Source of the DNA: a virus
Length of the DNA stretch: 64,000 nt
Virus record (IMG/VR): IMGVR_UViG_3300023110_001943
Location: 32,001-96,000 of that record
Direction: 5' to 3' (one strand)
The stretch's first letter is position 1. Each line of letters begins with the position of its first letter. This document shows positions 45,118 through 59,953 of the stretch, piece by piece. The notes under the pieces were generated by a model. That model made no database searches. It was given only the letters and a program-made list of their open reading frames with translations, and was not told where the DNA came from. The position numbers and the translations under genes were made by a program.

Positions 45118-47136
45118 ATGGCTTTAAATAGTGTAACAAAAAGAAGTAATCAAGGGAGAGATATAAAATATCTTAATAAAGATTTTGCTAAATTCAGACA
45201 AAATCTAATTGATTACGCAAAAGCATATTTCCCAAAAACTTATTCTGATTTTAATGAATCATCACCAGGTATGATGTTTATTGAAATGGCATCATATGTG
45301 GGTGATATACTTTCATACTACACAGATGATACTTTAAAAGAATCATTGATGTTGTATGCAGAAGATAAGGAAAATGTTATTGCATTGGCCTCTTATTTAG
45401 GATACAAACCAAAAGTAACTTCACCTGCTATTGTTAAACTATCTGTTTACCAATTAGTACCAGCTACTGGTAGTGGTAGTACAATACGACCAGATTATGA
45501 TTATTCATTAAGAATTAAAGAAGGTATGGTATGTGAATCAAATGGTGGAATTATTTTTAGAACAACCGAACTTTTAGATTTCAATGATGAAACAGATAGA
45601 GAAGTTGTTGTATATCAAAGAGATTCAAACACAAACGAACCAACACAATATCTAATAAAAAAATATGTAAATGCAATTTCAGCTGAATTAAAAACAACAT
45701 CTGTTCAGTTTGGTACTGCTCAACAATTTTCACAAATAAGATTAGCAGATACAAATATTATTGATATCTATGATGTAAGAGATTCAAATGGAAACAAATG
45801 GTATCAAGTTCCTTATCTTGCACAAGAAATGGTTTATGTGGATTATCCAACTTCAGAACAAACAGATAAAGATTTAGCACAATTTAAAGATTCTGTATCA
45901 AGTGTTTTAAAACTTATAAAAACATCAAGAAGATTTACTACAAAGGTAAATGAAGATAATACAACTTCAATAATATTTGGAGGAGGTAACTCAACATCAT
46001 CAGATGAAACATTAATACCAAACTTTAAAAATGTTGGATTAGGATTAAATTCATCCATAGATAGATTGGGTGCATCATTTGACCCTTCTAATTTCTTAAA
46101 AACTAAAACATATGGACAGGCTCCTGCAAATACAACATTGACTGTTTCTTACTTAGTAGGTGGTGGAGTTGAATCCAATGTTGCTTCAAAAGAAATAACA
46201 AGAATTAATTCTATTTCGTTTGATGAAGATACGAGTGTATTTGGTTCGGCAGAATTAGCACTTTATAACAGAATGAAAGCTTCTGTTGCAATAGAAAACG
46301 AATTACCAGGTAGAGGAGGTAGAGGTGCAGAATCTATCGAAGAGATTAGAGAAAATTCATTAGCAAACTTTGGTTCACAAAACAGAGCGGTAACAAGAAA
46401 AGATTATCAAGTAAGAGCGTTATCGTTACCTCCAAAGTATGGTGGTGTTGCAAAAGCATATTGTGCACCAGATGGAGAGTTAGATAATAATTCACCTTCA
46501 TCTATTTTAAATAATCCTGATTCATTAGAAGAATTTGCAGGATTAGTTCAATCATTAGGAAAACAAAACCTAACAGAACAACAAACAAAAGATGAATTGA
46601 GAAAATTCTTAAGTGGAAAGAAAAATAACATAAACGAAAAGAATAATCCATTTGCAATTAACTTATATGTACTTGGATATGATTCAAGTAAATATCTAAC
46701 ATCATTAAATAAGGCTATTAAAGAAAATCTAAAAACTTATTTAGGAGAATATAGAATGTTAACTGATGGTGTTAATGTTATTGATGGGTTTATCATAAAC
46801 ATAGGTGTAGATTTTGAAATCAGAGTTTATGGTGGATATAATAAAAGAGAAGTTCTTACACGATGTATAAATGAATTGAAAGATTACTTTAACATCGATA
46901 ATTGGACATTTAATATGGCAATCAACATTTCTGAAATAGAATTACTGATTGCAGGAGTAGAGGGAGTACAATCAGTACCTAAGTGTGAAATTACTAACAA
47001 GTGTTTAGGAAACTATTCATCGCATTCATATAATATACAAGATGCAACTAAAGGTAAAATGGTTTATCCATCTTTAGACCCATCTATATTTGAAGTGAAG
47101 TTTCCTAACAAAGATATTAAAGGGAGGGTTGTATAA
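45118..47136 (+). CDS. Baseplate wedge protein, T4 gp6/baseplate J-like
   Basis: DF...YSDFNESSPG, LGYKP, GG...ESIEEIR, QNRAVTRKDY. Confidence 0.88.
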   Translation: MALNSVTKRSNQGRDIKYLNKDFAKFRQNLIDYAKAYFPKTYSDFNESSPGMMFIEMASYVGDILSYYTDDTLKESLMLYAEDKENVIALASYLGYKPKVTSPAIVKLSVYQLVPATGSGSTIRPDYDYSLRIKEGMVCESNGGIIFRTTELLDFNDETDREVVVYQRDSNTNEPTQYLIKKYVNAISAELKTTSVQFGTAQQFSQIRLADTNIIDIYDVRDSNGNKWYQVPYLAQEMVYVDYPTSEQTDKDLAQFKDSVSSVLKLIKTSRRFTTKVNEDNTTSIIFGGGNSTSSDETLIPNFKNVGLGLNSSIDRLGASFDPSNFLKTKTYGQAPANTTLTVSYLVGGGVESNVASKEITRINSISFDEDTSVFGSAELALYNRMKASVAIENELPGRGGRGAESIEEIRENSLANFGSQNRAVTRKDYQVRALSLPPKYGGVAKAYCAPDGELDNNSPSSILNNPDSLEEFAGLVQSLGKQNLTEQQTKDELRKFLSGKKNNINEKNNPFAINLYVLGYDSSKYLTSLNKAIKENLKTYLGEYRMLTDGVNVIDGFIINIGVDFEIRVYGGYNKREVLTRCINELKDYFNIDNWTFNMAINISEIELLIAGVEGVQSVPKCEITNKCLGNYSSHSYNIQDATKGKMVYPSLDPSIFEVKFPNKDIKGRVV

Positions 47137-48200
47137 TGTATTATTTTGTAACGGCATCAAAAGATGCAACGATTTACTTACAACAACCAACACAAAACAC
47201 AGGGTTGGATGAGATATTAGAAGTTTCTAAAACTTATTATGGAAACTTAAAAGATATTGCTCACACACTAATCAAGTTTGATACAACATCACTTTCTCAA
47301 TCAATAGTAAGTGGAGATGTAACTATGAGTTCGGCTGAACTTATTCTAAGAGAAGCTGATTCATCTGATGAAATACCAACAGATTACACAATATATGCAT
47401 ATGCGGTAACCCAATCATGGGATATGGGAATCGGTACAAGATTTGATGAAATCAGTACAGATGGTGTTTCTTGGGATAAAGTTAGAACAGGTGTTAATTG
47501 GATGACACAAGATTCACATTCAGCAGATACTACTGGCTCATTTAATGGTAAAGGTGGAACTTGGTTTACTGGTTCATATTCAACTCAATCATTTTCATAC
47601 GAAACAACTGATATTGAAATGGATGTTATTGATACAATGACTTCGTGGATTAGTGGTTCTATACCAAACGAAGGATTTATTTTAAAATATTCATCTTCAT
47701 TAGAAAATGATACAAATGATTACGGTCAATTAAAATTCTTTTCAAAAGAAACAAATACTATTTACCAACCTAAATTAAGAATTGGTTGGGATGATTCTTC
47801 GTTCTCTACTGGCTCTTTAACAGAACTTACCGCTGATGATATTCATGTAACATTCAAAAGATTAAAGACCAGATATAAGCGTGGAAGTAAACCTGAAATC
47901 AGAGTTTTCGGTAGAGAGAAATATCCTCTCAAAACATACACCAACACATATTCTTACACAGATGTAAAATATTTACCATCTACTACTTATTACCAAATAA
48001 AAGATGTAATCACAGAAGAGATAATTATACCATTCTCAGATTACACAAAAGTTAGTTGTGATTCGAGTGGTAACTATTTTAAATTAAACTTAACAAGCTG
48101 GGAATACAATAGAGATTACTATATTGAAATTAAAGTAGATAGGGATGGTGTTATAGAATACTTTGTAGATAAGGATTTAACTTTTACAATAGAGAAATAA
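47136..48200 (+). CDS. Virion structural protein
   Basis: In baseplate operon; DATIY...NTG..., FFSKETNTIYQPKL jelly-roll-like pattern. Confidence 0.65.
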   Translation: MYYFVTASKDATIYLQQPTQNTGLDEILEVSKTYYGNLKDIAHTLIKFDTTSLSQSIVSGDVTMSSAELILREADSSDEIPTDYTIYAYAVTQSWDMGIGTRFDEISTDGVSWDKVRTGVNWMTQDSHSADTTGSFNGKGGTWFTGSYSTQSFSYETTDIEMDVIDTMTSWISGSIPNEGFILKYSSSLENDTNDYGQLKFFSKETNTIYQPKLRIGWDDSSFSTGSLTELTADDIHVTFKRLKTRYKRGSKPEIRVFGREKYPLKTYTNTYSYTDVKYLPSTTYYQIKDVITEEIIIPFSDYTKVSCDSSGNYFKLNLTSWEYNRDYYIEIKVDRDGVIEYFVDKDLTFTIEK

Positions 48201-48201
48201 A

Positions 48202-58756: not shown

Positions 58757-58782
58757 AAACCCCACTTCGAGTGGGGTTTTTT
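58757..58782 (+). terminator. Intrinsic terminator
   Basis: AAACCCCACT-TCG-AGTGGGGTTTTTT. Confidence 0.88.
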
Positions 58783-58816
58783 ATTTCAACATATTTATAT
58801 AGAGGAATTACTGTAT

Positions 58817-59953
58817 ATGTTAAAGACAATACCAAAATCAAGTGTTAATAAAAGAGCTTTCCAAGTTTATAAACAATGGGAAGTTAATAACACGCAACAC
58901 GAAGTAATTTCTGCTTCTGTTGGTGAAGGATACTATGATATTGAATCCTCTGTTACTCAAAGTGGATTTGTTACTTCTTCACTATATCGTTCTATTAAAT
59001 CAAAGTATTACAATCAAGAAGCAACTCTTACAAACGTATTTGGTACGATTTCTAATCCGTATAATATAGGTACTGAAAGAAATATTAGTGATACTGTATA
59101 TGTAATTGCTATACCTCAAAATAAGTATGGTGAAGAAATAAAAAGAAATTCCATATCTTTAGAAGATACTGATAATAGTCTAACATATCAAGATGATGGT
59201 TATGGTTCACTTGTATCTAATGTTCCTTTATATACTCTTGTATCTTTAGATTTTCAAACACAAGAAATTATTATTCAAGATAATGATTTAGAAATATTTA
59301 CAGGTACAATAAGTAGTTTCGATGTACAATCTGGACTAGCTACACTAACATTTGGTACAGATACCGATGTGGTTCAAGTAGTAAAACTTGATGCTCAAAA
59401 TAACATTTTACAAACATCGATTCCACTTGATTTTGATGGATTAGAAATCGATGAACAAAAGTATGGTAATGTGTTTTATGATGATGGTTTATTAGTTTTC
59501 ACAAACGCAACTCAATTTTCAAGTTATGTTTTAGATTTTAAATCAACTCAAACAATATATGAAACTGAAGTATTGATTAGTGTTAAAGCTGGAGAATTTA
59601 ATTATTCACAAAACCCATCCGCAGTACAAGTTACTTTAAGTGGTTCTTATGATTTTGAAACAACTGGTTTACAAAATAAAATTGTAGGTGGAACTAAAAA
59701 AATTAAAGAAGTACTTGATATAAAACGAAGAGAATTCTTTAGTGGTAGTATTGACCATAGTGTTAGTGGTTCTTGGGATGATTACTTTACATCTGCCTCA
59801 ATAGACCCAACAGGTTCTTACTTAACAACTTATATTACAACAATTGGTTTATATGATAATGATGGCGATATGTTAGCAATTGCTAAATTACCCAAACCTA
59901 TTAAGAATTTACCAGATTATGATGTGAACTTTATTGTTCGTTTCGATACTTAA
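58817..59953 (+). CDS. Virion structural protein
   Basis: EFNYSQNP...ITTIGLYD...AIAKLPKPI. Confidence 0.7.
   Translation: MLKTIPKSSVNKRAFQVYKQWEVNNTQHEVISASVGEGYYDIESSVTQSGFVTSSLYRSIKSKYYNQEATLTNVFGTISNPYNIGTERNISDTVYVIAIPQNKYGEEIKRNSISLEDTDNSLTYQDDGYGSLVSNVPLYTLVSLDFQTQEIIIQDNDLEIFTGTISSFDVQSGLATLTFGTDTDVVQVVKLDAQNNILQTSIPLDFDGLEIDEQKYGNVFYDDGLLVFTNATQFSSYVLDFKSTQTIYETEVLISVKAGEFNYSQNPSAVQVTLSGSYDFETTGLQNKIVGGTKKIKEVLDIKRREFFSGSIDHSVSGSWDDYFTSASIDPTGSYLTTYITTIGLYDNDGDMLAIAKLPKPIKNLPDYDVNFIVRFDT

Follow-up and report, generated by a model that had tools for sequence, protein, structure and literature searches.

An ordered Ser/Thr-Gly-Ser tripeptide in the tail proteins of an uncultured marine T4-like phage: a putative O-glycosylation tag of its clade

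Introduction

In an uncultured marine T4-like phage of the 'Far-T4' type, the tripeptide [ST]-G-S (Ser or Thr, Gly, Ser) occurs in five proteins, most of them assigned to the virion, about seven times as often as their composition predicts. The phage is represented by a single linear virus record of 141,496 bp (IMGVR_UViG_3300023110_001943; 76% complete according to IMG/VR, G+C about 30%), of which positions 32001-96000 form the stretch of 64,000 nucleotides that was analysed here (the window). The excess depends on the order of the three residues, is limited to one clade of phages, falls at turns of the protein chain and occurs in a genome that encodes sugar enzymes; alignments of homologues further indicate purifying selection on the motif and its recurrent gain. 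The best explanation, to which we give a sizeable but less than even chance, is that [ST]-G-S is kept as a putative O-glycosylation site, read by a trans-acting factor that is specific to the clade.

The nearest named relatives of this phage are Flavobacterium phage immuto, Microcystis phage Mel-JY01, Rhodothermus phage RM378 and the 484-kb uncultured phage LR756508; the RM378-like 'Far-T4' phages have been described elsewhere (PMC4360716). A T4-like baseplate and fibre module spans 44.7-60 kb of the window, beginning with gp25-like and gp6-like wedge proteins, recognized through PHROGs, and continuing with proteins that have no family names.

An excess that depends on residue order

The motif was recounted in every open reading frame (ORF) of the record from our own translation. 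The five carriers (Table 1) together hold 35 copies, against 5.0 expected from composition, and whole-protein shuffles find each of them enriched (p <= 0.0016 for each), in agreement with the excess over composition-shuffled proteins that the original prediction had anticipated; its counts of 8, 4, 13, 6 and 4 were all reproduced by the independent translation. When residues are shuffled within blocks of 15, 25 or 40 amino acid residues (aa), the mean count is 5.4-6.3, and the highest count reached in 3000 trials is 17. No tripeptide of the carriers is more enriched than SGS and TGS, and the same residues in permuted order are scarce: SGS, found 20 times, compares with 4 SSG and 2 GSS, and TGS, found 15 times, with 3 SGT, 6 TSG, 3 GTS, 3 GST and 2 STG. 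Local patches rich in Ser and Gly are ruled out as the cause by the block shuffles and the permuted tripeptides.

Position 1 of the motif takes Ser or Thr, one or the other preceding 35 of the 50 GS dipeptides in the carriers (70%), whereas at position 3 Ser outnumbers Thr by 35 to 6. The middle residue of [ST]-x-S is Gly in 35 cases, Ser in 21 (expected 7.3) and Ala in 8 (expected 2.8), each above expectation, and the usual turn formers are scarce, [ST]GN, [ST]GD and [ST]GT occurring 2, 3 and 6 times against 35 for [ST]GS. Residues at positions -2, -1 and +1 of the tripeptide are hydrophobic at 51-54% of the sites, against a background of 33%, and spacings of 6, 12 and 15 residues between motifs are about twice as frequent as expected.

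Apart from a 2221-aa protein described below, the other ~165 ORFs of the record hold 15 copies, against about 16 expected. The rest of the genome thus stands at expectation, and enzymes, for which almost no copies had been claimed, are therefore merely not enriched rather than depleted. Enriched and unenriched proteins stand side by side in one operon: no enrichment is seen in the gp6-like protein, in the products of the genes starting at 48202, 49415 and 56857, or in the first 750 aa of carrier 3, all regarded as inner parts. The proteins encoded at 48202-49413 and 49415-51472 serve as unenriched controls within the operon of the carriers, and the products of 49415 and 56857 have no copy at all, as had been reported. 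The gp6-like protein, said to have one motif, does have a single TGSGS cluster, which nevertheless counts as two overlapping hits and is not significant (2 against 0.62, p 0.12). Within carrier 3, all sites lie between residues 766 and 1682, the first 750 aa holding none (0.41 expected), so that the described restriction to the C-terminal part was confirmed.

At the level of codons, the carrier motifs use AGT for 79% of the serines at position 1 and GGT for 84% of the glycines. Throughout the genome, Ser is encoded by AGT in 69% of cases before Gly and in 21% overall, and Gly by GGT in 76% of cases before Ser and in 55% overall. Elsewhere the motif is written with other codons (TCA-GGA in immuto, TCC/AGT-GGT in Mel-JY01, mixed in RM378), and the codon-context bias of immuto is itself different, with TCA preceding Gly in 60% of cases. 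A repeat or motif at the DNA level was rejected, as it had been in the original prediction, because the AGT-GGT choice equals the genome-wide usage for S-G and G-S and differs from that of the three other phages. Since the codons vary among phages and match the general S-G/G-S context, selection acts on the peptide.

Sites are conserved, regained and placed at glycine turns

Among 120 homologues of carrier 4 with at least 76% identity, the motif residues are 94% identical to the reference, compared with 77% for other loop residues, 72% for the three flanking residues on each side and 61-67% for serines outside the motif. Sites 133, 238 and 353 of this protein are deeply conserved; sites 84, 207 and 289 are lineage-specific. 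The whole family, sampled as 150 representatives of which no pair exceeds 50% identity, contains 651 motifs against 103 expected. In an alignment of diverse members, three deep sites account for 180 motifs and a fourth for 40, and the remainder amounts to about 190-230 motifs scattered over ~65 non-conserved positions, where each permuted control totals 29-62. The family of carrier 1 retains ~5 motifs per protein from 99% to 32% identity, with 2-3 sites widely shared. Where a site lacks the motif, the Gly mostly stays and other polar residues flank it; the sites therefore appear to be pre-existing Gly turns, whose flanks have been driven towards [ST] and S. Taken together, the alignments indicate that the motif is under purifying selection, with recurrent gain at non-homologous turns. 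The earlier proposal that it is selected is thus sustained, given its better retention than that of other loop residues and serines, its stable density across divergent homologues and the lack of an excess in T4.

AlphaFold (AF2) models were used to place the sites of carriers 4 and 1 (predicted local distance difference test, pLDDT, of 86 and 87, respectively). Each of the 14 modelled sites falls in a loop, in a hairpin turn of two residues, or on the terminal residue of a strand or helix, and the suggested position in surface loops accordingly holds at the level of secondary structure, which is what the assignment covers.

A trait of one clade of aquatic phages

The excess extends to the relatives of the phage, with 118 motifs against 48.7 expected in the whole genome of immuto, 134 against 55.9 in that of Mel-JY01 and 53 against 19.8 in that of RM378. 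The proteins enriched in immuto are fibres, a 1053-aa 'tail spike' with 26 copies against 5.9 expected and the tail sheath with 7 against 1.3, and the homologous module of Mel-JY01 has about 49 against 6. Eighty IMG/VR loci that encode a relative of carrier 4, the marker (39-84% identity, G+C 29-42%), were scored over 20 kb around this gene, and all of them are enriched, with a median excess of 4.95x (range 1.7-6.7). The distribution is unimodal over this range; a bimodal one, which would permit a test of co-occurrence, was looked for and rejected. More than 5,800 relatives of the marker are found in aquatic metagenomes, and the lineage is therefore a very abundant one.

Outside this group the picture changes. 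Sixteen baseplate, fibre, sheath and capsid proteins of T4 hold 7 motifs, against 10.3 expected, and Flavobacterium phage 11b has 7 against 5.9. A 120-kb stretch of LR756508 shows 33 against 23.3, a small excess, yet the baseplate proteins of this phage are as similar to those described here as the ones of immuto are. The excess is a trait of the clade, absent from T4 and 11b and weak in LR756508, and this restriction argues against general turn physics. An effect of the host was rejected, in that phage 11b, the sole negative control, is not enriched, and the annotated hosts of enriched phages span different phyla. The motif also lies inside fibre repeats of immuto, Mel-JY01 and RM378 (for example F-S-G-S-F-x-G-D-G-S-x-L-T and I-T-G-S-L-I-V-S-G-S); the fibre repeat region of immuto had no sequence match in the PDB.

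The carriers and their surroundings

Table 1. Motif carriers, their neighbours in the baseplate and fibre module, and the adjoining sulfotransferase gene; positions refer to the window
Feature	Position	Strand	Description	[ST]-G-S observed	Expected
Carrier 1	15649..17556	+	635 aa	8	0.86
gp6-like inner baseplate wedge protein	45118..47136	+	PHROG baseplate wedge families	2	0.62
Carrier 2	47136..48200	+	354-aa baseplate-module protein directly after the gp6-like gene	4	0.54
Two motif-free module proteins	48202..51472	+	403 aa, coiled-coil-like (48202-49413); 685 aa (49415-51472)	0	
Carrier 3	51481..56787	+	1768 aa	13	2.0
Gly/Thr-rich 209-aa protein	56857..57486	+	most conserved protein of the module	0	
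Carrier 4 (marker)	57507..58736	+	409 aa; very large aquatic phage family	6	1.1
Carrier 5	58817..59953	+	378 aa	4	0.49
Sulfotransferase family 2	60179..60751	+	PF03567, E 1.4e-18; directly after the last carrier		

Carrier 1 consists of an ATP-grasp-like part (residues 1-305), a beta-rich middle domain (306-496) and a BIL-type Hint domain (497-630), which hold 3, 5 and 0 motifs, respectively. Structure comparison aligns 205-238 residues of the first part to glutathione-synthetase-like, GspS (glutathionylspermidine-synthetase) and YgiC ATP-grasp enzymes with VIA-align Z scores of 8.3-9.6, and gives Z 5.0-6.7 for RimK, LysX and TTLL ATP-grasp enzymes. The Hint domain has a Pfam match, was also recovered by a PDB profile search and reaches Z 22.7 to BIL2, making the ATP-grasp-Hint label under which the protein had been presented a reasonable one; the closest structures are the BIL2 of Tetrahymena BUBL and a Clostridium BIL. 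The reported lack of motifs in the Hint domain is correct and uninformative, since 0.05 would be expected there. A related Hint domain (BLASTP E 2.5e-5) occupies residues 1845-1968 of a 2221-aa fibre-like protein encoded just outside the window (genome 98283-104948), which holds 13 motifs against 6.2 expected.

Homologues of carrier 2 are present in immuto, Mel-JY01, LR756508 and 40 of the 80 IMG/VR loci, those of carrier 3, in which a weak LamG-like stretch covers residues 1124-1254, in 71 of the 80, and those of the Gly/Thr-rich protein in 75 (median identity 68%). The fold of carrier 4 has no match in the PDB by sequence profile or by Foldseek. Its C-terminal domain is paralogous to that of carrier 5 (BLASTP E 1.3e-5 over ~100 aa). 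Homology among the carriers was rejected as the cause of the excess, this pair alone sharing a domain and carrier 2 resembling carrier 3 weakly; the idea that the motif sits in unrelated folds is thus mostly right and fails for these cases. Similarly, the notion that it marks virion surfaces fits most carriers and does not fit the ATP-grasp-like and BIL/Hint protein or the capsid, which appears unmarked.

Just upstream of the baseplate wedge genes, window positions 42635-44035 encode a 466-aa protein with a C-terminal CHAP domain that resembles Streptomyces phage endolysins and is probably a tail-associated lysin. Elsewhere in the window, a UvdE UV-damage endonuclease is encoded at 28101-29048 (E 4e-66).

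Sugar enzymes of the phage and its relatives

A glycan locus directly follows the gene of the 2221-aa protein, and encodes a methyltransferase, a protein resembling glycosyltransferase (GT) family 2 that remains below the Pfam cut-off (24.4 against 27.5 bits), three GT7(N+C)+LamG proteins, a twitch radical SAM enzyme, three SDR epimerases or dehydratases, RmlC and the halves of a thiamine enzyme. The three GT7-LamG proteins are the phage-encoded glycosyltransferases present in the record; they are paralogues (genome 108474-113757, outside the window), each with N- and C-terminal GT7 domains and a LamG/ConA-like domain, and none of 14 control genomes from bacteria and archaea yielded a GT7 match. 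The radical SAM protein (genome 113785-115206) has a twitch domain and matches NF033640 with E 4e-101.

The sulfotransferase is a possible glycan-tailoring enzyme. Contigs that carry proteins identical to those of the record extend it to the left by at least 18.7 kb, and this extension contains a ferredoxin, a cytidylyltransferase-like gene, further small GT-like genes and, on contigs overlapping the left end of the record, an APS kinase (PF01583; L138:8938-9411). The presence of a sulfotransferase by the fibre genes, together with the APS kinase, suggests a phage-encoded sulfation pathway. Positions 61246-61899 of the window give a weak GDSL-like match. To the right no extension of the record was obtained, and roughly 25 kb of the phage genome lie outside the record and its left extension.

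Candidate readers have also been sought among the relatives. Positions 635-8430 of Mel-JY01 encode a collagen-repeat protein (805 aa), a motif-rich fibre-like protein (508 aa, 13 motifs) and then a 1227-aa fusion of a GT1 domain, a TibC-like N-terminal domain and a GT9 heptosyltransferase domain, the last gene directly following two motif-rich fibre genes. GT7, Sulfotransfer_2 and TibC-like GT9 were each rejected as the reader, being patchy or absent among enriched relatives. A pair of adjacent GT1/GT4-like genes in immuto (49128-50570 and 50573-51883), whose homologues in Mel-JY01 are syntenic, occurs in each of the four complete, strongly enriched genomes examined, namely immuto, Mel-JY01 and two 100%-complete IMG/VR genomes (G003 and G009), and both members also occur at the very end of a third IMG/VR contig. 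Metagenomes contain at least 8,000 relatives of member B, and the relatives of the pair in the PDB are limited to weak hits to the chlorovirus GT B736L. One in-frame TGA is read through in member A of Mel-JY01 (W02:83444-84929, annotated as two genes) and of G009 (195260-196711). The pair is a fair candidate for the reader of the clade, although the searches of the present record described below did not recover it. Within 10 kb of the marker no conserved non-structural gene was found, the widely shared genes being structural genes, a primase and an SbcCD-like gene.

Possible roles: a read tag, a turn or a docking site

The lack of an excess in T4, the disuse of N, D and T at position 3, the presence of unenriched proteins beside enriched ones and the repeated gain of sites favour a clade-specific reader over a plain structural role. 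In its looser form the tag would be [ST]-[G>S>A]-S, flanked by hydrophobic residues and carried on exposed Gly turns of outer tail proteins. We infer that a clade-specific factor, acting in trans, reads this tag; the likeliest reader would be a cytoplasmic protein O-glycosyltransferase, which would attach a glycan made by the phage to the position-3 serine during folding or assembly of the protein. The outcome would be a sugar coat on the periphery of the baseplate and on the fibres, following a logic like that of the TibC/Aah heptosyltransferases, which act on serines in short loops between strands. A more specific form of this proposal is possible, although we would not count on it: abundant aquatic phages of the Far-T4 type may possess an undescribed cytoplasmic O-glycosylation system, with [ST]-G-S as its sequon and a phage-made glycan coating the outer tail, the glycan of the present phage being perhaps built by GT7 enzymes, sulfated and proteoglycan-like.

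A number of observations weigh against a glycosylation tag. The targets of phage glycosyltransferases are often DNA or host glycans (PMC12619734). Carrier 1 is an ATP-grasp-like enzyme and no known virion protein, and the capsid appears unmarked, no other large ORF being enriched in this record, in which the capsid gene itself was not identified. The sites look much like those of an ordinary beta-hairpin, with hydrophobic flanks and, in most cases, Gly as the residue that is retained best. Of 18 related records, many of them fragments, 4 encode GT7 and 4 encode the sulfotransferase, although the related loci are all enriched, and the complete 274-kb genome G003 has neither; the co-occurrence of GT genes with the motif across relatives that had been looked to for support was, for GT7 across these records and the 80 enriched loci, not seen. 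PF01075 and PF21129, the families of the TibC-like GT9 enzymes, are unmatched in this 76%-complete record, immuto, RM378 and LR756508, and match Mel-JY01 only. As for the GT4-like pair, RM378 is enriched with only member A detectable, and LR756508 has member A and is barely enriched. In the 141-kb record, BLASTP, a profile search of the ORFs and a six-frame search all failed to recover the pair; the first 8.6 kb of the left extension were likewise negative in a profile search, and the genes tabulated for the other 10 kb include neither a GT1 hit nor one whose size would fit. Finally, pair and motif are both traits of the clade, so that their co-occurrence is confounded by descent and does not constitute independent evidence.

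Many of the same data could be accommodated without any covalent modification, if [ST]-G-S were the preferred tight turn of this clade, a type II'-like Gly-Ser turn capped by the Ser/Thr side chain, placed where beta-hairpins, beta-sandwiches and fibrous beta-structures turn a corner. Folding or stability would then be what maintains it, and it would have spread through descent, duplication and the shuffling of modules among tail proteins. We regard this as doubtful while granting it an appreciable weight. Gly is invariant at most sites while the flanks vary (SGS, NGL, GGT, EGL and DGL at one site, and xGS in 100% at another), one site coincides with the conserved Gly of the LamG stretch 'F-x-G-x-I-D-E-V-R-I-W', and the hydrophobic flanks, the position of the sites exactly at strand ends and two-residue hairpin turns, the preferred spacings, the recurrence in fibre repeats of three relatives and the failure to find a reader enzyme in this record would all be natural for a structural element. 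The physics of turns is universal, yet T4 and phage 11b lack the excess and LR756508, with equally similar baseplate homologues, shows little of it; nor would a turn readily account for the disuse of the usual turn formers, for neighbours in the same operon that are not enriched, or for the repeated origin of sites at non-homologous positions. A further proposal, chemical hardening, holds that S-G-S replaces N-G and D-G turns, prone to deamidation and isomerization, in virions that last in seawater or, for RM378, at 65 C. The confinement of the motif to virion-type proteins and the N-G content of the enriched proteins of RM378, at 0.59 of expectation (10 against 16.8), agree with it, but N-G and D-G are not depleted in the enriched proteins of this phage (0.82 and 1.26 of expectation), immuto (0.94 and 1.27) or Mel-JY01 (0.95 and 1.25), and the need for Ser/Thr at position 1 and the apparently unmarked capsid are left unexplained, making this reading very improbable.

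The evidence for a trans-acting reader is identical whether or not that reader adds a sugar, and the outer tail proteins could instead use the motif to dock with, or be recognized by, an assembly chaperone specific to the clade, a protease that processes them or an enzyme that modifies them in some other way (a kinase, acyltransferase, sulfotransferase or ATP-grasp ligase, for example). The fibres of T4 have an assembly chaperone, gp57A. Such a reader would suit a record in which no conserved glycosyltransferase was found and in which other tailoring genes occur (the weak GDSL-like gene, the sulfotransferase and the motif-carrying ATP-grasp-like protein, with the APS kinase beyond the left end). 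The genes shared across the clade within 10 kb of the marker, however, offer no candidate, and we know of no precedent for a tripeptide chaperone tag of this kind; we think it improbable that the reader is of this type.

Should [ST]-G-S prove to be a sequon, no acceptor motif for the glycosylation of tailed-phage virions would have been defined before it, and phage virion glycosylation with a defined acceptor motif would be new; a literature search for an SGS or Ser-Gly-Ser phage motif returned nothing relevant. The clade affected counts thousands of marine and freshwater members. Glycosylation sites could then be predicted from sequence, the large and variable glycan loci would be linked to a target, and the receptor binding, stickiness and decay of abundant aquatic viruses could be tested by mutating a three-residue tag. 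Even if the motif is purely structural, a clade-specific tripeptide under purifying selection marks outward-facing tail proteins in unannotated phage genomes.

Relation to known systems

Working in the cytoplasm, TibC and Aah hyperglycosylate beta-rich autotransporter surface proteins; they heptosylate many serines, but not threonines, in short inter-strand loops where small residues follow (N-S-G-G, T-S-A-A) (PMC4358343). The TibC/TibA and Aah/AIDA-I systems resemble the phage motif in the many copies of a site that is, as a candidate acceptor in the phage, Ser-specific, in the small neighbouring residue (Gly, Ser or Ala) and in the location at turns between strands, and the relative Mel-JY01 encodes its GT1 and TibC-like GT9 fusion beside motif-rich fibre genes. 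They differ from it in that a GT9/TibC-like gene was not found in this record, immuto, RM378 or LR756508, that the phage motif is an ordered tripeptide with Ser/Thr two residues upstream, and that its targets are phage tail proteins, with putative sites. The modelled sites all lie at loops, turns or element ends, and not all carriers are beta-helices.

In mycobacteriophages, phage-encoded transferases glycosylate the C-termini of capsid and tail-tube subunits, for which a role as a shield has been proposed (Freeman et al. 2023, PMC10527164, as related in PMC12619734). The present phage resembles them, as so related, in encoding glycosyltransferases of its own, the three GT7-LamG proteins, and in making its virion proteins in the cytoplasm. 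Its candidate sites, in contrast, are internal turns of baseplate and fibre proteins, and a defined tripeptide sequon does not figure in that account of the mycobacteriophages.

Eukaryotic glycosaminoglycans are attached to a Ser next to Gly, often in S-G-S-G, and their synthesis involves xylosyltransferase, the GT7 enzyme beta4GalT7 and family-2 sulfotransferases. The likeness lies in the Ser-Gly acceptor and in the phage genes, with three GT7 proteins, Sulfotransfer_2 and, on the overlapping contig of a near-identical phage, an APS kinase. Here, however, no xylosyltransferase was identified, acidic flanks are not prominent, and GT7 and the sulfotransferase each occur in 4 of 18 related records, whereas the motif is clade-wide in 80 loci. 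Generic Gly beta-turns and fibre-shaft corners, lastly, share with the motif a Gly at the turn, hydrophobic strand residues on both sides and recurrence in fibre repeats; they occur in all phages and show no preference for S over N, D or T, whereas the present case involves an exact tripeptide in a single clade.

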